From the IMG/VR virus record IMGVR_UViG_3300017734_000001: a DNA stretch of 64,000 bases, one strand, 5' to 3'. This DNA comes from an uncultured virus (IMG/VR IMGVR_UViG_3300017734_000001). Lineage: Duplodnaviria; Heunggongvirae; Uroviricota; Caudoviricetes; Crassvirales. Below the pieces are notes generated by a model. The model was given only the letters and a program-made list of their open reading frames with translations. It had not been told where the DNA came from and ran no database searches. This document shows, piece by piece, positions 5,719-64,000 of this stretch. Each line of letters starts with the position of its first letter. The stretch's first letter is position 1. Both the position numbers and the translations under genes were made by a program.

Positions 5719-5762
5719 TTCTTTTTCTTAAATCTTCCCACATTTCGTCTTCCGACATTAAA

Positions 5763-8635: not shown

Positions 8636-8638
8636 AAA

Positions 8639-9298
8639 TTATATTTTATTGTTATATAAATGTAGATTATGCGCGTGGTGGTAATATGTGCCTATTGGCA
8701 AATTTAATCTCTCTGCAACCATTTCTTGCAACGATGCAAACTGATACTGATCATTGCAGAAACCATACCAGAGATCATTAGAACGCATATAGACAGACAT
8801 GTATAGCTTATCTTGTACTACAGTAAACTGTACTGCATACGTACAAGGCGTGTCAAACTTATAAGCATTTATTTCTTTACCATCGTAAATACTTATAGCA
8901 GCTTGCCTGTTGTCTTTTGTTTTTAATTTGTTTATAACATGCTCAAGCTGATTGTTACGTTGCCATTGCCAACCATAGTTTGAATTAACTTCTCCATCAG
9001 GGTCAGCCATTTGTTTCCATATAGCGGGTACCTTGCCATATATCTCACCTAGCTTAGATATATTTCTGTCACCAGACATATACCATTTCCATTCAGCTTC
9101 AGCGTAGTCATGTTTCCAATTACGCTCTTTGTTTGTAATTACTTTGTTAGTAGGATCTTCTATTGTAAACCCTATATTAAACAAAGCTTTGGTACCTGCA
9201 AACTCGACACCATTAGTAATGATTTCGTTGTGCATATACTCGTAAGCTTCATTTGCTGTCTTGAAAGTATTTCTCATAATAATATCTATAATATTCAT
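8639..9298 (-). CDS. Thymidylate synthase superfamily enzyme, dCMP hydroxymethylase (T4 gp42)-like
   Basis: GEVNSNYGW, DTPCT..VQF, MRSNDLWYGFCND, HNLHLY; probable start 9277. Confidence 0.8.
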   Translation of the reverse strand: MNIIDIIMRNTFKTANEAYEYMHNEIITNGVEFAGTKALFNIGFTIEDPTNKVITNKERNWKHDYAEAEWKWYMSGDRNISKLGEIYGKVPAIWKQMADPDGEVNSNYGWQWQRNNQLEHVINKLKTKDNRQAAISIYDGKEINAYKFDTPCTYAVQFTVVQDKLYMSVYMRSNDLWYGFCNDQYQFASLQEMVAERLNLPIGTYYHHAHNLHLYNNKI

Positions 9299-9521
9299 AG
9301 ATCTTCTCCCATATCATATCTTTAATATAAACATGAGGCGATCGGTTTGTTTTACCGTTTATTGTTATATCTATATACCATGAACCTGGTTGCTTAGCAA
9401 ACGGTGCTATTTTTATACCGTTATTAATACACCAGTTCATAGCCTTGTGATCAAACTCTGTAGTTTCATATGTACCCATATTCCACTCAGACTTTTTTTT
9501 AGGTCTCCAGTGCGGAGGCAT
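9249..9521 (-). CDS. Hypothetical protein
   Basis: 90-aa ORF coupled to the primase-helicase stop. Confidence 0.6.
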   Translation of the reverse strand: MPPHWRPKKKSEWNMGTYETTEFDHKAMNWCINNGIKIAPFAKQPGSWYIDITINGKTNRSPHVYIKDMIWEKIYEYYRYYYEKYFQDSK

Positions 9522-11242: not shown

Positions 11243-11256
11243 TAATTTAATTTAAT

Positions 11257-11565
11257 TTAAAATGGTAGATCAACCTCTTCTTGAGCTTGCATTGGTGCAG
11301 GCGCTGGTTGATCATCTCTTTTTGAAGCTTCTACATTTTGGCCATTAGTCCAAACAACTTGCACATTACCTAAGTACGTTTTGCCTTGCTTAGCATCTCG
11401 CTCTTCTTTTGTTTGTGCAACAACAACTGGACCTTGATTACCAAATTGATCTGGCTCATCATTAAGAGTTATTGTTATTGGTAAGTATTTACCTTTCTTG
11501 CCTTGGATAATTTTATCCTTTGGTATTTCAGAAAGATTAATACTAGTTTTAATTATACTCGCCAT
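11257..11565 (-). CDS. Single-stranded DNA-binding protein (putative)
   Basis: Small beta protein with acidic tail EEVDLPF next to the helicase. Confidence 0.7.
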   Translation of the reverse strand: MASIIKTSINLSEIPKDKIIQGKKGKYLPITITLNDEPDQFGNQGPVVVAQTKEERDAKQGKTYLGNVQVVWTNGQNVEASKRDDQPAPAPMQAQEEVDLPF

Positions 11566-11743
11566 TATACGTATGAATTGATTTGTGAAAACATTCTTTG
11601 TAACTGATCTTTAGTTACATTAGTTGCACGTCTTAGATTATCAACAGCTTTTACGTGATTTTGGTTTGCGTAAAAGTTTTTAGTATTTGTTTCAAGTCCT
11701 GTAACTGTACAAATCTTAGTCTGGTTTTTTCTTGTTCTAGCCA
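11565..11743 (-). CDS. Small hypothetical protein
   Basis: Probable true start MARTRKNQ inside track ORF 11565-11888. Confidence 0.5.
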
Positions 11744-11754
11744 TATTATTGGTT

Positions 11755-12486
11755 TTAAAGGGTTTCATTAATAAAATACTGCGAAGGATCGAAGCCTTCT
11801 TGTTTATAAAATAAATCATAGATACTGTTTGCCTCCTGTACTTTTGCACTTCCGCGCTCATAAAATTCAGGTGAGCAATCAAATACACCTATTTGATGAG
11901 TTGTTTTGTCTATAACTATAAACAACATCTCATACCCAAAGAGCTTACTGTATATATAAGCCTGTGAGTCGTAATTGTAACGCTTTGAGCTAAACTTAAA
12001 CTTTTTGATATCTGCTGTAGTCTTAAGGTCAATAACAAGCCTTTCATCATGATTAATGATATCGGCTTTGCCTTTCCACATGTTACTACCTATTACTGAT
12101 ACTCCTGGTTTTTCGTACTCAACGTTACTTCCTTTAATAAAGTCTCTACAAACGTCGTTACTTAACATCTTATCTGTCATTAACTCTATTTGATCAACTT
12201 CATGTTGCAGCAAACAAAGTTCGCCACCGGACATATCCTTGTAAAACTTCGTGTTTCTAGTAGACGAAGGTATTACTCGGTATTTCTTCAACTTATCTGG
12301 TTCAAGTATAGCGGTATGAAAATATCCACCAACTAAAAACGCTGGAGAAGGTTTACTAGGTTGTCCCAACAAGAGAGGATTACTAAGTAAAGTTTGTATA
12401 TCAGAATTACTTATATACTGTTTACCAAACTCGCCATAGTAATCATCATCGTTTCTTAATTTCTCAATTATATTATCTTTGTTCAT
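11755..12486 (-). CDS. RecE/exonuclease VIII-like PD-(D/E)xK exonuclease
   Basis: ISNSDI, G..FHTAILEP, KGKADII, IDLKTT, YDSQAYIY. Confidence 0.8.
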   Translation of the reverse strand: MNKDNIIEKLRNDDDYYGEFGKQYISNSDIQTLLSNPLLLGQPSKPSPAFLVGGYFHTAILEPDKLKKYRVIPSSTRNTKFYKDMSGGELCLLQHEVDQIELMTDKMLSNDVCRDFIKGSNVEYEKPGVSVIGSNMWKGKADIINHDERLVIDLKTTADIKKFKFSSKRYNYDSQAYIYSKLFGYEMLFIVIDKTTHQIGVFDCSPEFYERGSAKVQEANSIYDLFYKQEGFDPSQYFINETL

Positions 12487-13084: not shown

Positions 13085-13834
13085 TTACAGATAATCAATC
13101 ACTTGCGAGTGATCTACGTTAGTTATTAATTTATTTATTGCATCTCTTTTTATCTGAGAAACTCTTATTTGAGCCGTGTCTACATTTATATCTAAGTTGT
13201 CTGCTATTTGTTTAGCTGGCATCTTATCACAGCCAATTCCAAAGCTATTTTTAATAACATAATATTCTTTATCGTTTAAATGTTTTTTAATTAAACTATC
13301 TAAGTATAGACTAAACAACTCTTTGTTGTAATTTTGGCTTTTGTCCTCTATTTGATCGTAATAAGAGTTATCATTTTTTTCGTCTATACTTGAAAATACT
13401 GCATTGAAAAACATTTGTACTATTTTTTCATTCTTACTATTGTTACGTCTCATTTCATTTAGTACATACTCTGGGATTTTTATATCGCCCCTGTTTATAT
13501 CAATACGTCTTCTTATTGCGCCTTTGATTCTTTTAGTAAAGAAAGACTTTAATGTTTTCTCTATATCTTCTGATTCAGATAATTTATTTACCCAGTCTAA
13601 TTTGTCTACTGCTTTAATTAAAGCTTCACTACCTATTTGTATTAAATCTAGTATAGTTAAAACACCTGAAGCTTGTTGGCTAGTAGAAAACTTACGAGCA
13701 AGACTTTCTACAAGAGGAGTAAATTTTACTATCAATTCATTACGAGTGTATTCATTATACTGTTTAACTTCAGGCATAGACTTTTTTAAGTCTTCTTTAT
13801 ATCTGATATAGTTTTTTATATTATATTTCTTCAT
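13085..13834 (-). CDS. Phage sigma-70 family RNA polymerase sigma factor
   Basis: Region 2 (RNELIVKFTPLVESLARKF..DLIQIG..ALIKAVDK..RIKGAI) and region 4 HTH (LNDKEYYVI..FGI..KQIAD.L..RVSQIKRDAINKL). Confidence 0.88.
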   Translation of the reverse strand: MKKYNIKNYIRYKEDLKKSMPEVKQYNEYTRNELIVKFTPLVESLARKFSTSQQASGVLTILDLIQIGSEALIKAVDKLDWVNKLSESEDIEKTLKSFFTKRIKGAIRRRIDINRGDIKIPEYVLNEMRRNNSKNEKIVQMFFNAVFSSIDEKNDNSYYDQIEDKSQNYNKELFSLYLDSLIKKHLNDKEYYVIKNSFGIGCDKMPAKQIADNLDINVDTAQIRVSQIKRDAINKLITNVDHSQVIDYL

Positions 13835-24041: not shown

Positions 24042-25604
24042 ATGGAATTTAATAACCCAAGCGAAATCGTAAAAGACTTGTCTTTTGGCGATAAAGGAAG
24101 AGAGAAGATAATGCTAGGGGTTGATAAGCTTACAAAAGCAGTTGAATCAACCCTTGGCGCATCTGGAAAGTGCGTTATATATGAAGATGCATTAGGAAGA
24201 CCGGTGATAACAAAAGATGGTGTAACCGTTGCGGAAAGCGTAGTCTTAAAAGATCCGGTCGAAAATATAGGTGCTACTTTAATTAAAGAAGCTGCTAAAA
24301 ATACAGTAAAAGAAGCTGGAGATGGTACAACCACAGCTACAGTTCTAGCATCGTCCTTGCTTACTAAATGTAACGAAACATTAGATGTAAGCATAAGAGA
24401 CCTAAAAGATGGTATAGACTCTTGTTTATATAAAGTAATGAAGCACCTAGATAAAAACGCCATACCAGTTGAAGGTGATATGCTTAAAAACGTAGCTACT
24501 ATAAGTTGTAACAATGATAAAGATTTAGGTAGCAAAATAGGTAAAGCATACAAAAAAGTCGGTAGAGATGGTGTTGTGCTTATGGAAGAGTCAGATACAA
24601 ATGAAACATATGTAGAGTTTGTGGATGGTGTTCAGCTTGAGTGCAACTTAAAGTCACAGCATTTAGCTACAAACAAAGATCGCATGACATGTGAGCTTGA
24701 TAATCCATATATTCTGCTAATGATGTCACCAATACCCAATGTTAGAAAAATACAGTCTATATTAGAGTTTGCAATAAAGAAAAACAGATCTTTGCTTATT
24801 ATAGCTGAAATGGAGCAACAACCATATGCCACATTAATAGCTAACAAAGTAAAGGGTAATATAAAAGTTAATGTCGTCGATCCACCAGGATTTGGCCCTA
24901 CTAAGATGGACACTATGGAAGACATAGCGTTCTTAACAGGTGCTAAAGTAATGAACGAAGAATTAGGTGATGATTTAGACCTTATTCAGCCAGATGTTTT
25001 AGGTGAAGCTGTAAAAGCTGTAACAGATGATAAAACGACCGTGCTTCAAGTTGGTGATCTAGGCGAAGCTTTAGCTGATAGAATAAAAACAGTTGAAGAT
25101 AAAATAAAAGAAGAAACTAATCCGTTTTTCAAAAAAAGACTAGAACAAAGGCTAGCTATGCTTAACGGATCAGTAGCTATAGTAAAAGTAGGTGCTGATT
25201 CTAAAGTTGAGCTAAAAGAAAAACGCGATAGAGTTGAAGATGCGATTCACGCAACTAAAGCCGCATACAAAGAAGGTATAGTTCCAGGTGGAGGTATAGC
25301 CCTTTTGAATGCCTCTAAAATAATCAAACCCGCTAACGCGGGTGAACAAGCTCTACTTGATGCTATTAAGTCTCCATACATAACTATACTTAATAACGCC
25401 GGTTTAGACGCATCTTTACAACTAAATAGAAAAGGTTGGGGTATTGATGTTACAACTGGCAAACCTTTGAATATGGCTAGAGCTGGTATCATAGACCCGG
25501 TTTTGGTTACAAAATCGGCGCTCAAAAACGCAGTGAGTGTTGTTAAAACTATTATTTCTGCAGATTGTATAATTAGTAATGTTAGAATAGATGAAAGCAA
25601 TTAA
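24042..25604 (+). CDS. groEL: Phage chaperonin GroEL (Cpn60)
   Basis: ITKDGVTVA, AGDGTTTATVLA, PGFG, ELKEKRDRVEDA..ATKAA..EGIVPGGG, GIIDP. Confidence 0.95.
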   Translation: MEFNNPSEIVKDLSFGDKGREKIMLGVDKLTKAVESTLGASGKCVIYEDALGRPVITKDGVTVAESVVLKDPVENIGATLIKEAAKNTVKEAGDGTTTATVLASSLLTKCNETLDVSIRDLKDGIDSCLYKVMKHLDKNAIPVEGDMLKNVATISCNNDKDLGSKIGKAYKKVGRDGVVLMEESDTNETYVEFVDGVQLECNLKSQHLATNKDRMTCELDNPYILLMMSPIPNVRKIQSILEFAIKKNRSLLIIAEMEQQPYATLIANKVKGNIKVNVVDPPGFGPTKMDTMEDIAFLTGAKVMNEELGDDLDLIQPDVLGEAVKAVTDDKTTVLQVGDLGEALADRIKTVEDKIKEETNPFFKKRLEQRLAMLNGSVAIVKVGADSKVELKEKRDRVEDAIHATKAAYKEGIVPGGGIALLNASKIIKPANAGEQALLDAIKSPYITILNNAGLDASLQLNRKGWGIDVTTGKPLNMARAGIIDPVLVTKSALKNAVSVVKTIISADCIISNVRIDESN

Positions 25605-26285: not shown

Positions 26286-26617
26286 ATTACAAACCAATCA
26301 CAATAAGAGCAAAGTGCAATTACTCAAAAGCACCAGCTAACCAAGAGGTGACTATAGATCCTCAAGGTAAAACGCCTGTCAATATGGCTAAAGTATCTCC
26401 ACTTAAAAAACCTTTGGTTGGCAATCAAGACAGACTACCTCAACATTTACAAGAAAACATTTTAGCTTCACCGGCGAAAGGATATAAATCTGATGCGCAG
26501 CGCAAAGCTGTACATGCTAGCAAAGCTGATGGAGGTAAAGGTGCTCCTAACAAAATGTACAAGTCACCTGCTAAAAAGAAGGGCTGCAAATCACCTGCTA
26601 AAAAACACTGTTATTAA
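26282..26617 (+). CDS. Small basic protein with SPLK/SPAK repeats
   Basis: SPLKK, SPAKG, SPAKKK, SPAKK. Confidence 0.6.
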   Translation: MNYKPITIRAKCNYSKAPANQEVTIDPQGKTPVNMAKVSPLKKPLVGNQDRLPQHLQENILASPAKGYKSDAQRKAVHASKADGGKGAPNKMYKSPAKKKGCKSPAKKHCY

Positions 26618-26955
26618 TGGCTTTTAAAATGAGAAGCGATTTAGCTAGATTAACTGGTACAGAAGAAGATTTAGCTGAAGACCCACAAAATCCAGTTTTT
26701 TTAAAAAAATTAGATCCGGGCATAGCTGCAGAAGCTAATAGAGATGGAACTATTTTTGTAGATCCATCATTGTCACCCGCTCAAATGAAAAAAGCCGTTA
26801 AACATGAAATGGTTCATATAGAGCAAATGAAAAGAGGTGATTTAAATTACGATAATAATAACGTTTACTGGAAAGGAAAAATATATCCTAGGGATAAAAT
26901 GCCTGAAGGATCAAAACAATTGCCTTGGGAAGCCGAGGCTTATAAAAGAACTTAA
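26617..26955 (+). CDS. Small zincin metallopeptidase
   Basis: HEMVH (HExxH) plus downstream PWEAEAY third-ligand motif; starts MAFKM. Confidence 0.7.
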   Translation: MAFKMRSDLARLTGTEEDLAEDPQNPVFLKKLDPGIAAEANRDGTIFVDPSLSPAQMKKAVKHEMVHIEQMKRGDLNYDNNNVYWKGKIYPRDKMPEGSKQLPWEAEAYKRT

Positions 26956-37034: not shown

Positions 37035-39247
37035 TGTACAAACAAAGTTTATATAGAATAATAAATCCTGTTAAGATAAACAAGTTAAAGAGATTTAATA
37101 AATCTAAAAGGTGGGAGTATGGCTACAATAAAGAAGAAGATCTAGTAATTATAAGTAAGACAGGTCAAATAGGAGATGTGTATAGCATACAAAACTTAAA
37201 CATAGCTTTACCACCTATGCCTAAAATAAACAAGCAAGACAACAAGTGGGTTAAAAAAGAATACCCTAAAGAGCTTAGCAGAATAAAAACTATATTTGAT
37301 TGGAAGACTTACCCAGATGATTTTAAACAAAACTGGGAGCCGTATATAGATGAAGAATTTAAAAGACGTGACGAAGGGTATTGGTTCTACAATAAAGATG
37401 AGCCTACTTATGTTACTGGTACTCATTACATGTACTTGCAGTGGACCAAGATTGATGTTGGGGCCCCTGAATTTAGAGAAGCAAATAGATTATTCTTTAT
37501 ATTCTGGGAAGCTTGCAAGGCAGACAGCCGCTGTTATGGAATGTGCTATCTTAAAAACAGACGATCCGGATTTTCTTTTATGGCGTCATCAGAAACAGTT
37601 AACTGGGCAACAATTTCATCTGATTCACGGTTTGGTATATTGTCCAAATCTGGGGCCGATGCTAAGAAAATGTTTACCGATAAAGTTGTACCAATATCAG
37701 TCAACTACCCTTTTTTCTTTAAACCAATACAAGACGGTATGGATCGTCCCAAAACCGAACTTGCATATAGAGTACCCGCATCAAAGCTCACGCGTAAATC
37801 TATACAGTCAGGGCAGACGAGGGAAGAGCTTGAAGGACTTGATACAACAATCGACTGGAAGAACACGGGCGATAACTCCTACGACGGTGAGAAACTTAAA
37901 CTCCTTGTACATGACGAATCGGGTAAATGGGAACGGCCGGACAACATCCTCAACAACTGGCGGGTCACGAAGACAACGTTGAGACTAGGTAGTAGAATTA
38001 TAGGTAAGTGTATGATGGGATCTACGAGCAATGCTCTAGACAAAGGTGGTGATAATTTTAAAAAGCTTTATTATGATTCAGACGTCACTAAAAGAAACCG
38101 CAATGGACAGACTCGCTCAGGACTATATAGTTTGTTTATACCTATGGAATGGAACTACGAAGGATTCATTGATTCTTATGGAGTACCTGTATTCGACACT
38201 CCAAAAAAAGAAGTTAAAGGTCCTTATGGGGAAAGCATAGATATAGGTGTTATAGAGCACTGGGATAATGAAGTAGACGGTTTAAGAGGTGATCAAGACG
38301 CTTTAAACGAATATTACAGACAGTTTCCGCGTACAGAAGAACACGCGTTTAGAGATGAAACTAAAAACAGTATATTTAATTTAACAAAAATATACGAGCA
38401 AATAGATTACAACGAAGCTGTTGCAGATGGATTGATATCAAAAGGTAATTTTCAATGGAAAAACGGTGTTAAAGACACTGAAGTTGTTTTTATGCCAAAT
38501 GATCAAGGTAGATTTTTAATATCGTGGGTACCAGATTTATCTATACAAAACAATGTTATACTTAAAAATGGCATGAAAAAACCTGGTAACGAGCATATTG
38601 GAGCTTTTGGTTGTGATAGTTACGATATATCAGGCACAACCGACGGTAGAGGATCAAAAGGCGCTTTGCACGGACTAACAAGGTTTAGCATGGAAAACGC
38701 ACCTGCTAACTCATTTTTTTTAGAATATATAGCTAGACCTCAAACTTCTGAAATATTTTTTGAAGATGTACTTATGGCTTGTATATTTTACGGCATGCCT
38801 ATACTAGCAGAAAATAACAAACCTAGACTTTTGTATTATTTTAAAAGAAGAGGTTACAGAGGTTTTAGTATGAATAGACCTGATAAAACCTGGAATAAAC
38901 TATCGGTTGCAGAAAAAGAAATTGGTGGTATACCTAACACAAGCGAAGACATCAAACAGTCTCACGCGGCCGCTATAGAAATGTATATAGAGAACCACGT
39001 AGGTCATATTAAAGAAGGTACTTACGGTAATATATATTTCAATAAAACATTAAACGATTGGGCTAGATTTGATATAAATAAAAGAACAAAGTTTGACGCT
39101 GCAATTAGCTCGGGATTAGCTATAATGGCATGTAACAAACATATGTATAGTCCAAAAAGTAGTTATAATAAAGACAAAGTAAATTTAAGTATCGCGAGAT
39201 ACCAGAACAAAGGAACAAGATCAAAACTAATAAATAATTATGGCTGA
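37034..39247 (+). CDS. terL: Terminase large subunit
   Basis: KNRRSGFS Walker A-like, LLVHDESGKW Walker B, GST coupling motif, GCDSYD nuclease aspartates. Confidence 0.88.
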   Translation: MYKQSLYRIINPVKINKLKRFNKSKRWEYGYNKEEDLVIISKTGQIGDVYSIQNLNIALPPMPKINKQDNKWVKKEYPKELSRIKTIFDWKTYPDDFKQNWEPYIDEEFKRRDEGYWFYNKDEPTYVTGTHYMYLQWTKIDVGAPEFREANRLFFIFWEACKADSRCYGMCYLKNRRSGFSFMASSETVNWATISSDSRFGILSKSGADAKKMFTDKVVPISVNYPFFFKPIQDGMDRPKTELAYRVPASKLTRKSIQSGQTREELEGLDTTIDWKNTGDNSYDGEKLKLLVHDESGKWERPDNILNNWRVTKTTLRLGSRIIGKCMMGSTSNALDKGGDNFKKLYYDSDVTKRNRNGQTRSGLYSLFIPMEWNYEGFIDSYGVPVFDTPKKEVKGPYGESIDIGVIEHWDNEVDGLRGDQDALNEYYRQFPRTEEHAFRDETKNSIFNLTKIYEQIDYNEAVADGLISKGNFQWKNGVKDTEVVFMPNDQGRFLISWVPDLSIQNNVILKNGMKKPGNEHIGAFGCDSYDISGTTDGRGSKGALHGLTRFSMENAPANSFFLEYIARPQTSEIFFEDVLMACIFYGMPILAENNKPRLLYYFKRRGYRGFSMNRPDKTWNKLSVAEKEIGGIPNTSEDIKQSHAAAIEMYIENHVGHIKEGTYGNIYFNKTLNDWARFDINKRTKFDAAISSGLAIMACNKHMYSPKSSYNKDKVNLSIARYQNKGTRSKLINNYG

Positions 39248-41666
39248 GTCAGTTGTAAAAAGTTATTTTCCTAGTCAAATAGCTAGCGATTTAGAAAAAG
39301 TAACCGAAGAATACGGTTTAAAAGTTGCTAAAGCTATAGAACATGAGTGGTTTAAAAGAGACTCCGGTACTAATAGGTTTTATAACAATCAAAATACATT
39401 TCACAGAAGAAGATTGTACGCGCGAGGCGAACAGTCTATACAAAAATATAAAGATGAGTTATCTATAAACGGTGACTTATCTTATCTAAATCTAGACTGG
39501 AAACCAGTTCCAATTATATCGAAGTTTGTAGATATAGTTGTTAATGGTATTTCAGAAAGAACTTTTGACATAAAAGCTTTCTCACAAGATCCTTACGGTG
39601 TTCAAAAAAGAACAGACTACATGGAATCTTTAATTAGAGACATGCAAACAAAAGAATTAAATAGCTTCGCTCAAGAAGCTTTTGGTATAAGTTTGTTTGA
39701 AACAGATCAAAACAGTTTACCAGAAAACAAAGAAGAGTTAGAGCTTCACATGCAGTTAGACTATAAAGAAGCTATAGAGATAGCTCAGGAGCAAGCTATA
39801 AATACAATACTAGAAGGAAACAGATATGAGTTGCTTAGAAAAAGACTAAATTACGACTTAACTGTTTTAGGTATTGGTTGTGCTAAAACATCATTTAATA
39901 AATCAGAAGGTATAAAAGTAGAGTATGTAGATCCTGCTGATATTATATTTTCTTATACAGAGTCACCTTACTTTGAAGATATATATTATGTGGGTGAAAT
40001 AAAGACTGTACCTATTAATGAACTTAAGAAACAGTTTCCAGAATTAACAAACGAAGATTTAGAAGAAATAACTAAGCAAGGCGTACAAAATACAGACTTC
40101 TATCACAGAACTATAAACGAAACAAACAACATAGATAAAAACTCTGTGCAGTTATTGTATTTTAATTATAAAACCTACGCTAACGAAGTTTACAAAGTAA
40201 AACAGACAGCAACAGGTGCTTCTAAAATATTAATAAAAGATGATACTTTTAATCCACCTGCAGAAGTTTTAGATCGTAACTTTGAAAAAATATCAAGATC
40301 TATAGAAGTTCTTTATGAAGGTGTTTTAGTTTTAGGTACAAATAAAATGCTAAAATGGGAGTTAGCTAAGAATATGATGAGAACTAAAAGCGACCACACT
40401 AAAGTCAAAATGAACTACAGTATAGTTGCTCCTAGAATGTACAAAGGTCGTATAGAGAGTTTAGTTAGTAGAATTATAGGTTTTGCTGACATGATTCAAA
40501 TAACTCATTTAAAACTACAGCAAGTTTTATCTCGCATGGTGCCTGATGGTATATATTTAGATGCTGATGGTTTAGCTGAAATAGACTTAGGTAATGGAAC
40601 TAACTACAACCCACAAGAGGCGTTAAATATGTTCTTTCAAACTGGTTCTGTTATAGGTAGATCATTTACGTCTGAAGGTGATATGAATCCAGGTAAAATA
40701 CCTGTTCAAGAAATACAATCAGGTTCTGGTAACAATAAAATATCATCTTTAATAACAACGTATAACTATTACATGCAGATGATACGTGATGTGACGGGAT
40801 TAAATGAAGCTAGAGATGGTAGTATGCCTGACAAAAATGCTTTAGTTGGCGTACAAAAACTAGCAGCCGCTAATAGTAATACGGCTACAAGGCATATACT
40901 GCAAAGTGGTTTATTTTTAACAGCTGAAATAGCAGAAGCTTTGTCACTAAGAATATCTGACGTTTTAGAGTATAGTCCAACAAGAGAAGCTTTTATACAA
41001 GCTATAGGAGTTCACAACGTGGCTACGTTAGATGATATATCTGACATGCACTTACATGACTTTGGTATATTTATAGATTTAGCTCCAGATGATGAGCAGC
41101 AAGCTATATTAGAAAATAATATTTAAATGGCACTTAGCCAAGGTACTATAGATTTAGAAGATGCTATTGACGTTAGAGAAATTAAAAACGTTAAGCTTGC
41201 TAATCAATTGCTTAAAATAAAAAGAAAAAAGAAGCAAGAAAAAGATATGCAGATACAGCAAGCTAATATGCAAGCTCAAGCTGATGCAAACGTGCAAGCT
41301 CAACAAGCTGCTGCTCAACTAGAAGTTCAAAAACAACAAGCTTTAGTTGGCGCGCAGGTTCAACTAGAACAAGCTAAATCAAATTTTGAATCACAAAGGC
41401 TTTCTGAAGAAGCTAAATTAAAGAAAGATTTGATGGCTTATGAATTTCAAATTAATATGGCTTTGAAAAGCAAAGAAGCTGAAGTTCATAAAACAAAAGA
41501 GTCTTATAAAGAAAACAGAAAAGACGATAGAACTAAAATACAAGCTTCACAACAAAGCCAACTTATAGAGCAAAGACAAAGAAACACCGGGCCAAAAAAC
41601 TTTGAATCATCTGGCAACGATATACTAAGTGGTGATTTTGATTTAGGTTCGTTTGAACCCAGGTGA
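39240..41666 (+). CDS. Portal protein, interrupted by one in-frame TAA at 41124-41126
   Basis: Follows terL. ORFs 39240-41126 and 41127-41666 are in the same frame (LENNI*MALSQ); Gln-rich coiled-coil C-terminus. Confidence 0.8.
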
Positions 41667-54513: not shown

Positions 54514-55155
54514 ATGAATAACAATATGAAACCATCACCGCTAAAAGTGCCAATAGGAGCCATAATGCAAGGCGTTCAAGGTCTAGCTGGTATAGCTGGA
54601 GGCATTATAGGTAGCCGATCAAGAAAACAAGAGCAACGTAATGCACAAGCAGAATATGAAAGAAGAAAAGCGGATTATCAAAGTTTAGACACATCTAATC
54701 CATACCTAAACCAAGAGAACGTTTATGAAGATTTAACAGTAAACACTCAAGCGGCTGATTTCGCAGCGCAACAACAACAACAAGCTGCTGCTAACACTAT
54801 GGATACGATGGCTAGCGCTGCTGGTGGATCTGGTATAGCTGCGTTAGCTCAAGCTATGGCTGGTCAACAAGCTCAAAATTTACAAGGTGCATCAGCTAGT
54901 ATAGCTCAACAAGAGTCTGCTAACGAGATGGCTCAAGCTAACATGGCTGGACAGTTACAATCGCAAGAAAGACAAGGTGAGGTTTACTCTAGAAACTTAC
55001 AAAAGGATAAAGTTGAAACATTGATGGGTATGTCGCAGCAAAGACTAGCGGCTGCAAATCAAGCTAGACAACAAGCTACGCAATCAATAATGGGTGGTGT
55101 AGGTAATTTAGTTGGAGGAGCTGCTCAAGGCTTCGACGCAATGAAAAGAGATTGA
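54514..55155 (+). CDS. Putative ejection/internal virion protein
   Basis: Gly/Ala hydrophobic ends, Gln/Ala-rich core; SPLK near the N-terminus. Confidence 0.6.
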   Translation: MNNNMKPSPLKVPIGAIMQGVQGLAGIAGGIIGSRSRKQEQRNAQAEYERRKADYQSLDTSNPYLNQENVYEDLTVNTQAADFAAQQQQQAAANTMDTMASAAGGSGIAALAQAMAGQQAQNLQGASASIAQQESANEMAQANMAGQLQSQERQGEVYSRNLQKDKVETLMGMSQQRLAAANQARQQATQSIMGGVGNLVGGAAQGFDAMKRD

Positions 55156-56690
55156 TAATGGCAAAACAAAATGAATTAATAGCACAGCAAGGTCTTATCT
55201 ACAATAGTAGATACTATGACCCTTCTTTGTCCCTAGCACAACCTTTTGCTAGAGCTGAAAGAGTTATAGATTACAATAACAGACGTAGAAGGGCTAATAA
55301 AGCTGCAGCTGAAGCTAAAGTTTCTCAATACGTAGAAAATCTAGCAGGTGATTTGCCAAACATAAGTAAGATATCTCCAAAGTACAGAAACAAAATAAAC
55401 GAGTTTTTAGTAAGTAAAAGAAGAGAGTATACTAACGCAAGTAAAGTTATAGGTAGATTTGCACCAGGCACAACTGCATATATGGAAGCTGTGTCTAAAA
55501 TGAACTCCATAAGTGACTCATTTAAAAACCTTAGTAATCAGTTTGATTTATTTAAAAAACTAAAAACAGAAGAGCTACCTGACTTTCAAAATAGATTATT
55601 GTCTGAAGCTAATAATCCAAACAATATAAGTTTAATGTCTAGTATACTTACGGATGAGCTTGACGTTGAGGTTGGTGAAGGTGGTAGTTTAAGTTTCGTT
55701 CAACAGGTTCAAGATGAACTAGGTAACATAAGTTTATCTCAAACTAGTTTAAACGATTTACCTAAGTATTTTAATAAAGACTTTGATACAGCCACAAAGA
55801 TTATAGAAATGAATAAAACTTTGTATAATGGCAGTAAAAAAATGACGCCAGCTATGGCTAAGTTTGTTGAAATGCAACTTAGAAACCATATGATGCAAGG
55901 TGGTAGAGAAACAGTTTTGTCTTTAGCTGTTGATGATTTTATCATACCAGATGGTTTAGGTTTAGATGACGATCTTCTTTTTAACGAAGAAAGACACGAC
56001 GAACTTGTTGATGTTGTGGTAGATCAATACTTGAACATGTTAAAACAATCTGCTGATACTGGATACGAGTCAAGAAGAGCTGCTGATATTCAGACTATAA
56101 AAGACAGAAAAGCTGCAAGTGGAACTAGCAGTACTAGTACTAGCAACGAAGAGACAGACTTGTTTACACCTGGCCAAAGACAAGATATTATGTTAAACCA
56201 ACAGTTTGCTCAAAACATAAAAAATAGAGCTAAAGATATGTTTGATAGAATAAACGATCCTAGCATGCTAGCAAATTTTGATGGTAGATTTAATGAATTA
56301 TCAGATTTATACATAAAAACTATAGGCATGAATAGCCCAGACATGGCTAACAGATATATAGATAGAAATAGACACTACGAAATGTGGAAACAACAACACA
56401 AGGATGTTCCAGATTTTGACGTGCAAGGTGAGTATAACAAAAGATTTGGTGCTGGTGATAGAATATTTGTAAACCTAACAGGCCAAGGTAGAGATTTAGG
56501 TAATGTATTTCAATATCAAGCCGTAGACCCTTTTGTTAACGCTGCCGATTTTGATCAATTCTACAGAGATTTACTTATAACATCTGGCATGGATCCAAAA
56601 ACAGCTAACTACTTTGTTTATGGAATAGAAGGCATGACAGGCGGTGAAGACGCTGCTGATGATGAAGGTGTATTAAACGTATCAAATTAA
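55152..56690 (+). CDS. Putative internal virion protein
   Basis: Helical 512-aa protein between the ejection-like gene and the giant gene. Confidence 0.5.
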   Translation: MIMAKQNELIAQQGLIYNSRYYDPSLSLAQPFARAERVIDYNNRRRRANKAAAEAKVSQYVENLAGDLPNISKISPKYRNKINEFLVSKRREYTNASKVIGRFAPGTTAYMEAVSKMNSISDSFKNLSNQFDLFKKLKTEELPDFQNRLLSEANNPNNISLMSSILTDELDVEVGEGGSLSFVQQVQDELGNISLSQTSLNDLPKYFNKDFDTATKIIEMNKTLYNGSKKMTPAMAKFVEMQLRNHMMQGGRETVLSLAVDDFIIPDGLGLDDDLLFNEERHDELVDVVVDQYLNMLKQSADTGYESRRAADIQTIKDRKAASGTSSTSTSNEETDLFTPGQRQDIMLNQQFAQNIKNRAKDMFDRINDPSMLANFDGRFNELSDLYIKTIGMNSPDMANRYIDRNRHYEMWKQQHKDVPDFDVQGEYNKRFGAGDRIFVNLTGQGRDLGNVFQYQAVDPFVNAADFDQFYRDLLITSGMDPKTANYFVYGIEGMTGGEDAADDEGVLNVSN

Positions 56691-56701
56691 AATAAAATAA
56701 C

Positions 56702-59700
56702 ATGCTAGAAAAACTATACAATGTTTTGTATGATAAAAAATTATTCACACAAGACTTTGATAAATTTAAACAAGCTTGGAGTAACGAAGAATATAAGAAA
56801 AAAGTATACGACGTTGTAAACTCTAAGAAACTTTTCACGCAAGATTATGATGTTTTTGTAAACGCATATAGCGAGGGAAAGCAACAGGGCGATGTTGCAA
56901 CGGATGCAGCTGCAGAGCCCGCAGAAGATTTGGCATCCACATCGGCAATTACTTCATCGGACTTATCTTTACCAATACCTCAAAGTGAAGGGCCTGCTGA
57001 TCCTGAAGCATACACTACAGATTTAGGATTAACTTACGGCGATCAAAGAACATCTCAAGAACAAATAGACGACTTTATGAATAATATGTACCAAGCTTTG
57101 TCAGCTACAGGTACATATGAATTTTTAAAAGAAAAAGATTTAGAAGAAAGATACTACTACGCTGGTAAACTTATATCAAACCCTACAGGTTCACCTAAAG
57201 ACATTAAATTATCTTATTACAATTACTTCAAAGACATAAAGATAAAAGGTGTAAAAGATCCTAAAGCTATACTAGAACCTTTGTTTTTAGATAAAGATCA
57301 AATAAAAGAAGATTATTTTAAAATTAAAAACCTTAAAAACGATTTAAATATAAAAGACTTTTATGATCAAGGCGGAACAGAAGATGTGTTAATTAAAAAC
57401 GCTGATGATGCTGTAGATGAATTGATTCACGAAAGTGATTACATGAACAAAGAGTTTTTACCTTACTTTTTTAAAAAATACGAAGAAGATTTTTACAATA
57501 AACAAATAGAAACAATAGAGTCAATGGAAGTAGATTTTATCGGTCAAGATGAACTAGATAAAATCGAAGCTGAAATGGAGAACTATCAACTAGAGATGCT
57601 AAAACAAGAGCTAGCTTCAGATGTTGGTTATAAAGATTTAGTTAGTAAAGTAACGAGTGTTGTTTCAAATGATTTAGGTATAGATATAAAAGCTTTAAAT
57701 AAAACTAAAGTAATACCTAATTGGGCTGAAGGCTCTGATTTTTTAGAAGGTATATACAGGTTTACTAAGCAATGGGCTAGCGGTGAAGCCGGTGAGAAAA
57801 TGGCTAATATATCTAAAGAAAATAAAGGTATAGATAACTTTTTAAAAGCTTACCAAAGCGGAGAATACACGGAGCAAGAATTAGCTGAGATAGCTAAAGA
57901 AAATTTAACAGATGCAGACTTAACGCTTTTATATCCATCTAAGTCTGTAGCACTTAGTAGAGCTCAGTGGATTGGCGCTGATAATTACGAAGAACTGATA
58001 GATAAGGCTAGGGCAGGTATAAAAGATCCTGTCTCTTACTTGAAGAAAAAGAAAAAATTTCTAAATAAGCAGTTTATTAATAGCATGCAAGACAGCGAAG
58101 AGCTTTCTAAAGTGTTATCCATAATGGACAATACTGAGTTTTTTGATGAAGATGGTGTTACTATTGATGATTTTCAAAGAATGGCAGGTGAACAGCTACC
58201 TCAAATGGCTCAAGCTATTCTAACTTTAGGTTACGGTACTTATATGCAGGAAGCTGGTGGTATATACGTAGAGTCAATGTATAAAATAGCGGAGGCTAAA
58301 TATGGACCATTAGCTTTAGGTATGGCTAGTAAAGAACAAAAAGAACAAATGTTCTTAGAGATAATGGAAGCTGGAGAAGATAATCCAGATGCAGCTATTG
58401 AAGGTGGTGTTATAAACGCTGGTTTAGATTTTGGTTCATCAATTTTTGTAGTAACAAAGGCTGGTAAATTTATACCTAAACAAGCCTGGAGATCTTTGCT
58501 TAGAGGTGAGTTTAAAAAAGCCTTAAAAAAAGCTGGAGGTAAAGACTTGCTAGAAGATGCTTTAAAAATATCTATAGCAGAAAGTATTACAGAGGGTTCT
58601 CAAGAGACAGTTTCTATGCTTAAAGTAGGTAAAAGCACAGGTTACTACAATTTTGATCCAAAAAGAATAAAAGAAGGTGCAGCTCAAGGTTTTGCTAGTT
58701 CATTACTGTTTTTTGGTTTAGGTAAGAGTAGATCTGCTTATAATTATTTAACAGATGGCATTGGTTTACAATACTCTAGATTTAAAAATAAAGATCACAT
58801 ATTAAATTTAATTAAACTAGAAAAACAAAAAATAAAACAAGATCTTAAAAATGGCAATATAACAAAACAAGAAGCCATTGATAAAGTTAAGAAAGCCAAC
58901 GCTAAAAGAGATGTTATAGTTGATAACGATGTTTACAATGTTTCTGAAAATAACAGACAACAAGCATTTGACGCTACAGAAGCTGTTGTTGATGAACAAG
59001 TTAAACTTGACACAGCGCTAGACAACCTAAAGCAAGCAAAAAACAACCCTTCTGCTACAGATCAAGATATTGAGTTTAGAGAGGCAGAGGTTAATAATCA
59101 AAAAGAAAGACTTGCAGATGCTAAATTTGAACTTAATAAAGCAAAGCAGAAAGACAATGCTAGTAAAGATATAAGCAGAGCTTCTAATAGAATTAATCAA
59201 ACAAAAGAAGGTGAATTAGCTGATAAACAACTTATTACATTTAGAACTAGAAAAGAAGCAGCTGCATTTGTAAAAAGATACAAAATAAAAGTAGACGCAA
59301 ATATTGAAGGGTTACTAAATGGTGGGGCCTCAGGAGCAGCTTTAGCGCCTGGACAGACTATAAGATACAAAGGTGAAGATATAGTGCCAGCTTTTGTTGT
59401 GAAACAAACAATAAATGAGCAAATCGATAATTCTACTAGACAAAACGATTTTAGTTTACGATCTGCTTTTGCGGCTAGTCACGAGGTTAATCACTTTATA
59501 TTAGATACCGTTGACCCAAAAGTGTTAGATGGTGTTGTATCTAAGTTAAAAAACGACATGCGTAATTCTGGAGACATCGAAACTAATGCGGTTTTAGAGA
59601 TTGTTGAAACCATGATGGTGGAATATGTAAAAAAAGATCCAAAAATATCTAGAGACTATTTAAACCAAGAGTTTTTAGCTGGTTTAGGTGATGTGCTACA

Positions 59701-62700
59701 AACTTTTAAAGCTTTAAAACCTAAATCTCCATTTCAAAGAATGTTTATAGACTTTGGTGAATCTATTTCAAAAATTATAAACGCTAACACAGGATTAAAT
59801 GTAAACTACAACGATGCTAATTCTGTGCTAGGCTTTCTTAAAAATTATAACAAATTTTTAGGTAAAAATGCACCTATAGTAATAAAAAGTGGTACTGATA
59901 TTGATGGCGAGAAAAAGTCTAGAGCTCAAATAAGCTTAGAGCAGCAGAAGAAGCTTTTAGTAGATGAGAATAAGATTTTAGCACCTATGATGCGTACTAA
60001 CGCTTCTGCCGCTAAAAAAATACAGGAAAACGTAGATAAGATAAAAGCTATAAGTGCTCAAATAATAGAAGAAAAAGAGCTAGCAGAAAACTTAAAGTTT
60101 GCTCCTGGTTTATCTAAAAAAGCAAAAGATATTACAAGAAAAAATGAGCTCAATTGGAGTGAGCTTATGGATCCAGCTACTAAAGAATCTGACAAAACAG
60201 CTTTAAAAAATAAAATATACGAAGACAATCAAGGTACTATTATAAACATTATAAGAAAAACATTTAATCCAAATATAGAAAGCAATCTAACAGCTGAAGA
60301 TTACGCACAAGCAATGCAGCTTGAAGCCTTGAAGATGATCGATTCTTACGAAAAGACATATAACAAAAAGAAAGCAGAAGGTACATTAGCACCGTGGAAC
60401 TTTTATTTAAAAGATAACTTACCTAAGAGACAAGGAGCTATACTTAAAAAACTTATAGGTGATAAGTCTATGATGTTTATGGGTGATGCTACAGCTAGTA
60501 TAGGTAGCGCTCAACTTGGTTATACACCTGATTATGGTAATTTTAGTAATGAAGAATACATCGAACAACAAGGTGTAATAGTAGATGAAGTTTTAGCTTT
60601 CACACCAGAAATTAAAGCAGAAATAAGAGAGGCTGCTAAAAAAGTTTTATCAACTTTTAAAGGTGATTCAGGTGTTAATCTTAAAAAACAACTTGGCGAT
60701 GCTCTTGAAGTAATGCTAAAGCCTTATATTCAAACAAATGTATTGGGTAGTAAGGTAAAGAAAAACTACAAAGGGCAAACGTATAGAGAGTTTATGCAGC
60801 AAAACTGGGAAGATATATATTCTATAATAGGTTTTGACGTTATAAATACCAGACTTACATCTAGAACTAAACAAGAGAAAGCGGCTGGCATACCAAATCC
60901 TTTTATATTTAAAATAACTAAAGACGGTAAGCAAGTTAGAGATAGTAGATTAGAAGACCTAACTGGTAAAGGTAGAGGTAAAGCTAAAAAGAGAATAGTT
61001 AATCAAGAAGAGTTTATAAAATTCTTTTTTGGTGAATTAGTAAATCCTTCTACACAAGGTACTAGAAAAGATACTTTAGCAGAAATAATAGCTAGAGAAG
61101 CTGGCTTAGATCAAATAAGCTGGATGCTAGAAAACGATACTGAGTTTTTAGATTTATTTAAACAAAAACAAGACTTGTTAGGTACTCTTATAGATAATGA
61201 TTACATCGAGAGTATACAAAGACAAATTGACAGGTTTGATGGTTCAAGAAGACCAGGGTCAAGAGCACAGTTAGTCATAGACAGCGCTAACTACAACGGT
61301 TTAAGCTCTAGCGCTGCTATGAACGTATTAGAAGACATTAAAAACAACGAGATAATAGATTACAAGTCTCAACCATTAAATCGATTTAGAAATGATGTTT
61401 TAGACATGATAAGAGTTGGTAATGCTTACGCTGCTATAGATTTATACCATACCCCAACAGACGAAGACATTAAGGTTGATGGTAAGTATAAACTTAACAA
61501 TGAAGGCTTACAACTATCAAATGTTAAATCGGATGGTGATGTTAGTGTAAGAGTTAAAATTAGCTCAGCTGGAAACTTATTTGTGCCTAAAGAGTTTTCT
61601 TGGAATGGTGGATTTAGCATAATGAGATCTTTAGATATAGAGTTAAAAGGTTATGATGTTGCTATGTCTAGAATACCAGACGAAGATGGTAGTTATTTTG
61701 CTAAATGGTTAGTTGATAATAACATACTAACAAAAAAGCAAGTAGAAAAAGATGCTAGCGCTAGTGGTATAAGAGAAACTTTAGTGTCTGAAGGTTATAC
61801 TTCAATAACATATCCTAAAGCTGATGGTAGCTTTGGCTATATAATACTAAACAACGAAGCTTTTGACTTGTCTTTTGATAATAAAATAAACAATCAAATA
61901 AAAAGCTTAATGAGTGATTCAGGCTCAAGAGCTCAGTTGGTTGGTATGAAGGGAAAAATGAGTGAGATCATTGAGCAGAAATCAAAAGGTAAAATAAAAG
62001 CCAATGAAGTATTATCTAACGCTGCTGCAAGAAACATGCGTAGAAAAGCTGGACTTAACTTTAGCAATCTATATGTTCCTTATCAACTAGAAGACTTTGT
62101 AGGTTTAACATATGCTTTCACGCCAGAAGGTAAAAAAGGTGAAGCCGCTCAAGAGTTTATAAAAGAAAGAGTGATGAATCCTTATTTTGAAGCTAAAGAG
62201 CAGTATAGAGTTTTTCAGCAAAACTTAAACGCTAACTTTAATAGATTACTTAGTGATGTTGGTATTACAGCTAAAACACTTAAAGAAACAGTAGACATAC
62301 TAGGTAAACCGTTTACTAAAGATCAAATAGTTAGAGCTTATTTGTTTTCTACACAAGGAGCTGATATAGATCCTTCTATATTAAGCCCAAAAGAAATACA
62401 AGCTTCATTAGACTATATAAAGTCAGATGAAAAGCTTTTGATGCTTGCAGCAATGCTACCAACAATACTAGATAACAAAGGCGGTTGGGTACGGTATAGA
62501 GGTGAAATGCACGAAACTTTATCTATTGATATAGTTAAGTTTGCAGAAGGTAAAAGAAAAATATTTTTTGAAAGATTTAAAGACAATATAGATATAATAT
62601 TTGATCCTCAAATAAAAGAAAAGTTAAGAGGTTTGCTAGGTGAAACATACGTTAAAGAACTAGAAAGCTCCCTTAAAAGGATGTACACAGGTAGAAATGA

Positions 62701-64000
62701 AAGCCAAAACGCTAGTCCAATGGTTAACGAGATTATGACTTGGTTTAATGGCTCTGTTAATACTATAATGTTCTTTAACATGAGATCTGCTAGCTTACAG
62801 TTGCTTTCTACAATTAACTTTGTTAACTGGACCGATAACAACCCCATAGCTGCTGGTGCTGCCTTTTCTAATCAAAAGCAGTTTTGGTCTGACGTGTCTA
62901 TGCTTATGAATACAAGTTACATAAAAGACAGGATGGGTAACATGAAGTTTGATGTTGAAGCTGATATTCTTGTTGAAATGGGCAAAACATCAAAAACATA
63001 TAACGATCTTTTAGCTAAACTTTTTAAGCTAGGTTATGCACCTACAAGACTTGCTGACTCGTTTGCTATAACTTTTGGTGGTGCTACTTTTTACAGAAAT
63101 AGATTCAACACTTACAAAAAACAAGGTATGTCAGACGCTAATGCTAATGCTAAAGCTTTGGTAGACTTTGAAAGAACGGCTGAGGTTAGCCAGCAGTCTA
63201 GTGATCCATCTAAAATAGCAAGTGCGCAGATTGGTAGTTACGGTAGATTCCTTTTTGCTTTTGCTAACACTCCATTTCAATATGCTAGATTATCAAAGAA
63301 AGCTGCTTTAGATATAATAAATAACAGAGGTGATTTAAAAACCAATATATCTAAACTAACGTACTACACTTTTGTTCAGTCTATAATATTTTCAGCCTTA
63401 CAAAACGCCGTGTCTTTAAAAGATTTAATTGATTTGGGAGATGAAGAAGATGATAGAATGGACGAAACAACTAGAGGGGCTTTATATTTTGGAGTTAATT
63501 CTTTGATAGATGGTCAATTGAAAAACTTTGGTGCTAGAGTTGGTATTTCATCTATACTAGCAAAAAATGCTTTGTTGCTGCAAATACAAAGAGATCTTTA
63601 CAGAGAGTTTGGTAAAGATGCTATTGGTGGACCTTTTGATTTAGTTAAAGCTGCTAGACCTGAAATTGGTCAAATGGTTCTTTTGGCTAGTTCTGTTTCT
63701 CCGCCAATGTCAACCAAGACTAGAAAATTATTTGCTATAGACAGAATGGATATCTATAATCAAATACGAGAGAAAAAAGAGTTTTACGACTTAACAGATA
63801 CATGGTATGTATATCCACAAGATCCAACGTGGCAAACATACGCTACATATTTAAACGTAGCACTTAATATACCAGCTGATAGATTATTACAAAAATTAGA
63901 AAATATATCTTTCGCTATGTATGATGAGTTTGATTATGCCACAAGATTTGCGTTTTTAGCTGGTTGGAGCAAATGGAACTTACTACCAAAAGATGACTTT
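56702..64000 (+). CDS. Giant multidomain (polyvalent) internal virion protein, 3'-truncated, at least 2433 aa
   Basis: ATG at 56702 (MLEKLYNV...). Every segment translated is open, the last codons are in frame (..WNLLPKDDF), and the track lists no closed ORF in this frame. Contains HEVNH, sigma-2-like and ART-like segments. Confidence 0.85.
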   Translation, partial: MLEKLYNVLYDKKLFTQDFDKFKQAWSNEEYKKKVYDVVNSKKLFTQDYDVFVNAYSEGKQQGDVATDAAAEPAEDLASTSAITSSDLSLPIPQSEGPADPEAYTTDLGLTYGDQRTSQEQIDDFMNNMYQALSATGTYEFLKEKDLEERYYYAGKLISNPTGSPKDIKLSYYNYFKDIKIKGVKDPKAILEPLFLDKDQIKEDYFKIKNLKNDLNIKDFYDQGGTEDVLIKNADDAVDELIHESDYMNKEFLPYFFKKYEEDFYNKQIETIESMEVDFIGQDELDKIEAEMENYQLEMLKQELASDVGYKDLVSKVTSVVSNDLGIDIKALNKTKVIPNWAEGSDFLEGIYRFTKQWASGEAGEKMANISKENKGIDNFLKAYQSGEYTEQELAEIAKENLTDADLTLLYPSKSVALSRAQWIGADNYEELIDKARAGIKDPVSYLKKKKKFLNKQFINSMQDSEELSKVLSIMDNTEFFDEDGVTIDDFQRMAGEQLPQMAQAILTLGYGTYMQEAGGIYVESMYKIAEAKYGPLALGMASKEQKEQMFLEIMEAGEDNPDAAIEGGVINAGLDFGSSIFVVTKAGKFIPKQAWRSLLRGEFKKALKKAGGKDLLEDALKISIAESITEGSQETVSMLKVGKSTGYYNFDPKRIKEGAAQGFASSLLFFGLGKSRSAYNYLTDGIGLQYSRFKNKDHILNLIKLEKQKIKQDLKNGNITKQEAIDKVKKANAKRDVIVDNDVYNVSENNRQQAFDATEAVVDEQVKLDTALDNLKQAKNNPSATDQDIEFREAEVNNQKERLADAKFELNKAKQKDNASKDISRASNRINQTKEGELADKQLITFRTRKEAAAFVKRYKIKVDANIEGLLNGGASGAALAPGQTIRYKGEDIVPAFVVKQTINEQIDNSTRQNDFSLRSAFAASHEVNHFILDTVDPKVLDGVVSKLKNDMRNSGDIETNAVLEIVETMMVEYVKKDPKISRDYLNQEFLAGLGDVLQTFKALKPKSPFQRMFIDFGESISKIINANTGLNVNYNDANSVLGFLKNYNKFLGKNAPIVIKSGTDIDGEKKSRAQISLEQQKKLLVDENKILAPMMRTNASAAKKIQENVDKIKAISAQIIEEKELAENLKFAPGLSKKAKDITRKNELNWSELMDPATKESDKTALKNKIYEDNQGTIINIIRKTFNPNIESNLTAEDYAQAMQLEALKMIDSYEKTYNKKKAEGTLAPWNFYLKDNLPKRQGAILKKLIGDKSMMFMGDATASIGSAQLGYTPDYGNFSNEEYIEQQGVIVDEVLAFTPEIKAEIREAAKKVLSTFKGDSGVNLKKQLGDALEVMLKPYIQTNVLGSKVKKNYKGQTYREFMQQNWEDIYSIIGFDVINTRLTSRTKQEKAAGIPNPFIFKITKDGKQVRDSRLEDLTGKGRGKAKKRIVNQEEFIKFFFGELVNPSTQGTRKDTLAEIIAREAGLDQISWMLENDTEFLDLFKQKQDLLGTLIDNDYIESIQRQIDRFDGSRRPGSRAQLVIDSANYNGLSSSAAMNVLEDIKNNEIIDYKSQPLNRFRNDVLDMIRVGNAYAAIDLYHTPTDEDIKVDGKYKLNNEGLQLSNVKSDGDVSVRVKISSAGNLFVPKEFSWNGGFSIMRSLDIELKGYDVAMSRIPDEDGSYFAKWLVDNNILTKKQVEKDASASGIRETLVSEGYTSITYPKADGSFGYIILNNEAFDLSFDNKINNQIKSLMSDSGSRAQLVGMKGKMSEIIEQKSKGKIKANEVLSNAAARNMRRKAGLNFSNLYVPYQLEDFVGLTYAFTPEGKKGEAAQEFIKERVMNPYFEAKEQYRVFQQNLNANFNRLLSDVGITAKTLKETVDILGKPFTKDQIVRAYLFSTQGADIDPSILSPKEIQASLDYIKSDEKLLMLAAMLPTILDNKGGWVRYRGEMHETLSIDIVKFAEGKRKIFFERFKDNIDIIFDPQIKEKLRGLLGETYVKELESSLKRMYTGRNESQNASPMVNEIMTWFNGSVNTIMFFNMRSASLQLLSTINFVNWTDNNPIAAGAAFSNQKQFWSDVSMLMNTSYIKDRMGNMKFDVEADILVEMGKTSKTYNDLLAKLFKLGYAPTRLADSFAITFGGATFYRNRFNTYKKQGMSDANANAKALVDFERTAEVSQQSSDPSKIASAQIGSYGRFLFAFANTPFQYARLSKKAALDIINNRGDLKTNISKLTYYTFVQSIIFSALQNAVSLKDLIDLGDEEDDRMDETTRGALYFGVNSLIDGQLKNFGARVGISSILAKNALLLQIQRDLYREFGKDAIGGPFDLVKAARPEIGQMVLLASSVSPPMSTKTRKLFAIDRMDIYNQIREKKEFYDLTDTWYVYPQDPTWQTYATYLNVALNIPADRLLQKLENISFAMYDEFDYATRFAFLAGWSKWNLLPKDDF

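Follow-up and report, generated by a model that had tools for sequence, protein, structure and literature searches.

A repeated junction motif in the giant zincin-bearing polyprotein of an uncultured crassvirus, a candidate self-cleavage signal

We analysed a stretch of 64,000 nucleotides (the window) from the uncultured virus IMGVR_UViG_3300017734_000001, assigned to Crassvirales. Family matches identified genes for a terminase, a portal protein, a crAss-type muzzle domain, GroEL, a primase-helicase, ribonucleotide reductase and a separate sigma factor. Sequence identity of the capsid protein is 45–52 % with its counterparts in Elemovirus, Maribacter phage Panino and an uncultured spring phage, and 37 % with that of Callevirus phi38:1. 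The virus appears to be an uncultured marine podovirus infecting Flavobacteriia, with a flavobacterium as its presumed host. The portal gene (39240–41666) is interrupted by an in-frame TAA at 41124–41126 with an ATG directly after it. Both halves match one portal family consecutively (profile positions 6–649, then 652–824), and the split may be either an assembly error or a read-through site. The separate sigma factor gene (13085–13834, minus strand; phrog_351, E 8e-21) is additional to the sigma-2-like module described below. GroEL is encoded at 24042–25604, and an ORF of 112 aa with a weak match to a metallo-protease PHROG (E 1e-4) lies at 26617–26955.

A block of three genes on the plus strand ends with the giant gene studied here, which lies among the late virion genes, a position typical of polyvalent phage proteins. 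The first gene of the block encodes a small putative ejection protein of 213 aa (54514–55155), whose family profile matches phi38:1 gp99 (E 2e-6) and phi18:3 gp120 (E 0.003). The second encodes the middle putative ejection protein of 512 aa (55152–56690), with profile matches to elemo gp19, phi38:1 gp100 and phi18:3 gp121 (E 3e-6 to 3e-5; 3e-5 for gp121). The giant gene (56702–64000) runs for 2433 codons without a stop and continues past the end of the window. The last 47 codons were supplied by the contig L001, which is 100 % identical over the searched part, so that the full protein has 2480 aa. In one relative (L010) the giant gene is present as two ORFs, 3822–5819 (666 aa) and 5876–12040 (2055 aa), with the break upstream of the zincin.

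The N-terminal part of the giant protein contains a conserved virion domain (aa 364–834; 57791–59203, plus strand; family profile E 4e-23) with a strain-variable block inside. The profile of this N-terminal region matches phi18:3 gp123 (9e-12), phi38:1 gp101 (3e-21) and elemo gp18 (4e-17). The three phi18:3 products gp120, gp121 and gp123 are syntenic with the block, and their GenBank notes say that they were detected in virions by MS/MS. From the homology and synteny of all three genes with these products we infer that the giant protein is likely packaged in the head as the largest of three ejection proteins. The preliminary description of this DNA had called it a virion or ejection protein, and both the likeness of its N-terminal part to gp123 and the synteny agree with this.

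The same description reported four copies of SRAQ, and all four are present, at 57956, 59918, 61259 and 61925 (aa 419, 1073, 1520 and 1742). SRAQ is the sole 4-mer with more than two copies in the giant protein (expected copies 0.02), and none of 500 shuffles of the protein showed any 4-mer equally over-represented. The codon differences among the four copies are all synonymous, and Arg is AGA in each. Only three copies are conserved, however. Those at aa 1073 (59918–59929, after the zincin), aa 1520 (61259–61270) and aa 1742 (61925–61936, before the C-terminal domain), hereafter junction tags A, B and C, are kept in all four aligned relatives (L002, L004, L091 and L015), even in L015 at 44 % identity. 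The copy at aa 419 (57956–57967) is missing from all four and lies inside the strain-variable block. We rejected it as a conserved site, and it is probably incidental. The strain-variable block (aa 301–700; 57602–58801) is 54–81 % identical to L002, compared with 99–100 % from aa 801 on, which suggests a recombined or host-adapted segment. Elsewhere in the family, P0031 reads SSAQ, SRAQ and SRAQ at the three sites, and P0003 (30 % identical) reads TRYSL, TRFSL and IRAQK. We compared the tags with the domain boundaries of the structure models. In the better model (mean pLDDT 75) tags A and B fall in linkers with pLDDT below 50, but a poor model (mean pLDDT 48) draws tags B and C within helices.

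The zincin-like metallopeptidase domain spans approximately aa 851–1055 (59252–59866, plus strand). Its zincin residues are H927, E928 and H931 of HEVNH (59480–59494) and the third ligand E990 (59669–59671), which is part of QEFLA (aa 989–993). The zincin had been called from HEVNH and QEFLA, and the conservation of the third ligand supports the call: all 101 proteins of a set chosen for HExxH have Glu in this column. HExxH itself is present in 127 of the 139 complete family proteins. The predicted structure consists of a three-stranded sheet, the HExxH helix and a later helix bearing the Glu. A Foldseek search of the 697-residue model against PDB and BFVD gave no match at E ≤0.001; there was no fold-search match for the zincin portion, the result list being taken up by the sigma and hairpin parts. 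A predicted complex of the zincin with zinc and a tag-C peptide scored 0.01, a value which counts neither for nor against cleavage. Several relatives (L019, L022, L038, L147, L157 and L162) carry a conserved EExxH variant of the zincin (PLEELFH) on several C-terminal backgrounds, and two others (L076 and L232) a QExxH variant. A second HExxH close to the C-terminus of the giant protein, beyond the conserved domain, was seen in L037, L049, L077, L092, L108, L115, L116, L120 and L164.

Tags A and B enclose a module of 447 aa, which the preliminary description took to be sigma-like. Fold, profile and atlas agree with this, and a sigma region-2 fold at aa 1151–1259 (60152–60478, plus strand) is supported by the structure model. 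VIA-align placed sigma factors in all top five chains (Z 7.2–7.8), the best being 8b3z_A (Z 7.8, rmsd 2.5 over 80 residues). A profile of the module built from 102 sequences matches the sigma factor chain 8x6g_H (E 5e-4), and the atlas places the module at the Sigma70_r2 cluster (0.91). Although Z values of 7–8 are middling for helical domains, no other kind of protein appears among the top five chains, and the sequence profile points to sigma factors as well. The region-2 fold resembles the SigE N-domain, sigma28 and SigB; unlike in the sigma-70 family, it is embedded in a virion polyprotein. T4 gp55 is a sigma factor with region 2 only. The module contains a second folded domain at aa 1286–1510 (60557–61231, plus strand; mostly pLDDT 80–97), which had no match to sigma regions 3 or 4 in a fold search that barely covered it.

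The segment between tags B and C is a variable cargo of 218 aa (61271–61924, plus strand). It had been proposed to be ART-like, an assignment that is no more than a lead: the atlas points to ART-PolyVal (0.89; PF18760 on 17–22 % of cluster members), but the cargo has no Pfam match and its triad looks degenerate. The profile comparison of the cargo with the family's ART-like cargo gave a probability of 1.4 %, and a search for deeper homologues of the ART-like cargo returned close kin alone. The structure model (mean pLDDT 48) is too poor for fold comparison. Judging the alignment by eye, H1583 is present, Q1604 occupies the Y place, and T1700 occupies what we take, from the family consensus, to be the D place. 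The catalytic triad of ART-PolyVal, as given in the available passages of PMC5512222, is H-Y-D. As a weak lead, the cargo may thus be a degenerate ART-PolyVal-like domain. PF18760 matches below the cut-off in two relatives (L042 and L122), and none of the named LPD/PolyVal Pfam models matches the giant protein of the window. Among relatives the cargo varies between zeta-toxin/AAA, DUF2608/HAD-like and ART-PolyVal-like domains, with the HAD-type motif DFDDT in 40 of 101 proteins.

The part following tag C, from aa 1753 to the end (61958–64000 in the window, plus strand), is the most conserved part of the giant protein, with 30–35 % identity across the family. No Pfam, PHROG or convincing NCBIfam match was found for this C-terminal domain, whose relatives are encoded by at least 491 viral and at least 544 metagenome stretches. 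The whole giant protein had no match in Pfam, PHROG, PDB sequences or, by tblastn, cultured phages.

We examined the joints across the family in two sets. The first comprised 170 loci, reduced to 126 representatives and then to the 101 proteins that reach 1800 aa and have both HExxH and the anchor (three near-duplicate pairs were left in). The held-out set started from 175 later loci with 152 complete proteins; 49 of these duplicated the first set and were removed, and 87 representatives were kept, of which 78 were tested after exclusion of eight without anchor and one with a variant zincin. Among the 3-mers of the middle region FSK is the most over-represented, with 148 occurrences in the 101 representatives against 30 expected. 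A tag matrix trained solely on two windows, one following the zincin and one preceding the C-terminal domain, has the consensus K-I/V-K/Q-F/A/E-S-K/R-S/T. In the untrained middle region it gave 1.6 hits per 1000 aa, compared with 0.26–0.51 in three control regions; 2 of the 132 middle hits are part of the HAD motif. Many first middle hits lie 290–470 aa past tag A, where the sigma-like module ends. The family tag thus follows both the zincin and the sigma-2-fold module and also precedes the C-terminal domain. SRAQ-L/I aligns with it, with R-A-Q-L opposite K-F-S-K. By this alignment, SRAQ at 1073, 1520 and 1742 is to be read as this lineage's version of a family junction motif, which is usually K/Q-F/A/E-S-K. 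Repeated linkers analogous to SRAQ had been expected in homologues, and relatives do carry their own tag version at the same joints.

Tags within one protein tend to resemble each other. In the 101 proteins tags A and C are more alike within than between proteins (z 8.9, 0 of 5000 permutations), and in the 78 held-out proteins z was 6.1; the permutations ignore phylogeny in both sets. Six of seven control window pairs were null in the first set and one reached z 2.4, while all four controls were null in the held-out set. Compared with the nearest neighbour, self-likeness of A and C in the first set wins 48 times, loses 25 times and ties 28 times. Deviant tags recur inside one protein (LAQK four times, KFKR four times, ASIP three times), and a shift of the core from S to Q at both A and C was found in 4 proteins of 2 lineages (table 4/5/2/57). 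Tags of one protein are also often unlike, e.g. KESR at A with KFSK at B and C. The tag serine is encoded by both TCN and AGY codons in 54 of 76 proteins. Together with the matrix hits and the within-protein likeness, this codon use supports, for three of the four SRAQ copies, the earlier view of sites at module joints under constraint at the protein level.

The same tag at the joints of the window protein, and the relatives' own tag at the same joints, point to 'cut here' signals for the built-in zinc protease. The proposed chain starts with the N-terminal virion domain and the zincin, continues with the sigma-2-like module and the exchangeable cargo, and ends with the conserved C-terminal domain; one tag each follows the zincin, the module and the cargo. 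The embedded zincin would recognise and cleave the tag, which reads SRAQ-I/L in this virus and K/Q-F/A/E-S-K in the majority of relatives. The cuts, which would most likely be made in the course of ejection or thereafter, would yield pieces of approximately 121, 51, 25 and 84 kDa. The freed 51 kDa sigma-2-like piece would bind the core of the host RNA polymerase, and the exchangeable cargo would be set free in the host cell. On the sequence evidence we lean towards the tags being self-cleavage sites of the embedded zincin and consider this reading fairly probable. It is favoured by the matrix enrichment, the A–C likeness, the repeated deviant tags, the mixed serine codons, the position of tags A and B in linkers and the autoproteolysis already proposed for polyvalent proteins (PMC5512222), as well as by the breakpoint clustering and the tag decay described below. 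Against it stand the permutations that ignore phylogeny and the ties and losses to nearest neighbours, the unlike tags of single proteins, tags B and C drawn in helices, and the points on zincin loss, tagless proteins, zincin variants, covariation and uncut homologues that follow.

Proteins without the zincin bear directly on this reading. There are seven distinct ones, five of the 139 in the first set and two further (L246 and L342). The C tag is weak in all seven, with scores from −5 to 6 against a family median of 10, and only zero or one strong tag lies upstream. On the tree of the C-terminal domain they are scattered, and on the tree of the sigma module they form one clade (support 0.95–0.97). 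The latter argues for a single loss of the zincin followed by recombination, and we rejected several independent losses, as suggested by the C-terminal tree. The zincin-less L246 and the zincin-bearing L094 share a HAD and C-terminal block of 79 % identity, and the tags around HAD have decayed in L246. Conversely, the last 760 aa ahead of the C-terminal domain contain no strong tag in 13 of 101 and 15 of 78 zincin-bearing proteins of the two sets, counts made with a matrix that under-scores deviant tags, SRAQ itself included. The likeness of tag C covaries only weakly with zincin identity (partial r 0.09; 7 of 300 permutations), and somewhat more closely with C-terminal identity (r 0.14).

Co-loss of tag and zincin suits binding as well as cutting. 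The tag may be bound and left uncut: the zincin fold, a chaperone, or the portal or ejection channel could dock on it so that the modules are packed or threaded. The phage has its own GroEL, strong tags are kept in four of six proteins with an EExxH zincin, and encapsidation of the N4 virion RNA polymerase requires its zincin region, yet this protein is packaged without processing. However, the family keeps HExxH, with the catalytic Glu and both His, together with the third ligand at the high frequencies given above, and the tags occur at joints only. We regard docking without cleavage as unlikely.

The tags could also be seams of DNA recombination or gene conversion, or helix caps at module starts, with no role in recognition. 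BLAST homology breakpoints do cluster at middle tags, with 239 of 993 within 25 aa compared with 103 ± 13 for random sites. There is a small excess of codon identity among tag copies (249 of 391 against 222.5 expected), the SRAQ copies of the window share the core AGAGC(T/A)CA, and a helix comes after tags A and C. Nevertheless, the exchange of TCN and AGY codons and the mean identity of only 0.36 in the DNA flanking tag copies argue against copying at the DNA level. The same tag precedes unrelated modules, and the concerted change at distant sites and the decay in L246 would not be expected of helix caps. We therefore rate seams or caps as quite improbable. Cleavage of the tags by another protease, of the host or from another phage gene, with the zincin acting elsewhere, e.g. 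on peptidoglycan or a host protein, accords with the weak sequence link between tag and zincin and with the peptidoglycan digestion proposed for such domains, but we hold it very unlikely, as lineage-specific shifts from S to Q at A and C are hard to reconcile with a single host enzyme, zincin loss goes along with tag loss, and no head-maturation protease was found among the 57 window ORFs scanned, one of which has the weak metallo-protease match given above.

Self-cleavage by a zincin fits a class of proteins that is already known. The preliminary description had considered the locus the best candidate for an undescribed system, and this does not hold for the class: polyvalent phage proteins were defined, and their autoproteolysis by a zincin-like MPTase proposed, by Iyer et al. 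2017 (PMC5512222, section 8). According to the available passages of that paper, P1 DdrB is processed, yet three proteins with such a zincin, the N4 virion RNA polymerase, ArdC and TraC1, are delivered uncut. As far as these passages go, the giant protein resembles polyvalent proteins in being a giant late-region protein with a zincin and variable effector-type domains, with ART-PolyVal-like, zeta-toxin/AAA-like and HAD-like cargo in the relatives of the window; it differs in that no LPD Pfam family matches it. Section 8 and the other available passages name no cleavage motif, 'cleavage site' occurs in the reference list only, and 'linker' and 'sigma' are absent from the main text, to which the supplement may add with regard to novelty. 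The junction tag appears undescribed, as no published description of it in such proteins was found in the literature searched, which covered subscription journals thinly.

Related proposals come from other phages, each cited from the available part of the source. Zincin cleavage of fused crAss-like polyproteins was proposed in a preprint on phi14:2 (10.1101/2020.03.07.982082). A paper on N4 ejection notes that the C1 domain contains HExxH and does not mention cleavage in its available passages (PMC13434306), and a preprint on phi24B reports a 2811-aa polyvalent protein in virions, for which peptidoglycan digestion is suggested (10.64898/2026.04.10.717836). The block resembles gp65, gp66 and gp67 of the crAss-like phi14:2, and the N4 virion RNA polymerase, in its three putatively packaged ejection proteins, a zincin within the set and proposed processing. 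In contrast to both, the giant protein lacks DxDGD and has a sigma-2-like module instead. We rejected its identity as a virion RNA polymerase, given the absence of the DxDGD motif and of any Pfam, PHROG or PDB-sequence match to a polymerase. The sigma-2-like module in place of an RNA polymerase suggests that the host RNA polymerase would be used.

Further counterparts are Callevirus phi38:1 gp101, Baltivirus phi18:3 gp123, the corresponding protein of Panino and Elemovirus gp18, which share the position after two smaller homologous genes and a homologous N-terminal region. Like the window protein, elemo gp18 has a zincin (E 2e-12), whereas the large proteins of phi38:1, phi18:3 and Panino have none. 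By profile, the sigma-2 module and the window-type C-terminal domain are absent from all five large structural proteins compared, and tblastn gave no direct match between the giant protein and the large structural proteins of cultured phages. In elemo gp18 (L174:2352-13436) R-x-Q occurs after the zincin at 1683, 2079, 2223 and 2302 (RFQ, RQQ, RAQ and RMQ), apparently at module joints. Four of its six copies fall within 650 aa against 0.7 expected, a lead from a window picked post hoc.

The proposal that zincin-bearing phage polyproteins process themselves dates from 2017 and came without sites; the tags make it directly testable. There is a tag at every joint, with hundreds of natural variants; it is absent where the protease was lost, and the cultured phage protein elemo gp18 offers a candidate. 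The tag also marks module boundaries for cargo with no family match. If packaged, the sigma-2-like module would be an extra route to early takeover of transcription. In the fullest version, which we offer tentatively and hold to be possible but doubtful, an abundant family of aquatic flavobacterial podoviruses would inject a self-cleaving polyprotein whose zincin and tags shift specificity together in each lineage (SRAQ, LAQK, KFKR, KFSK). One of its products would be a virion-delivered sigma-2 factor that redirects the host RNA polymerase before phage genes are expressed, and would thus take the role that a virion RNA polymerase has in crAss-like and N4-like phages.
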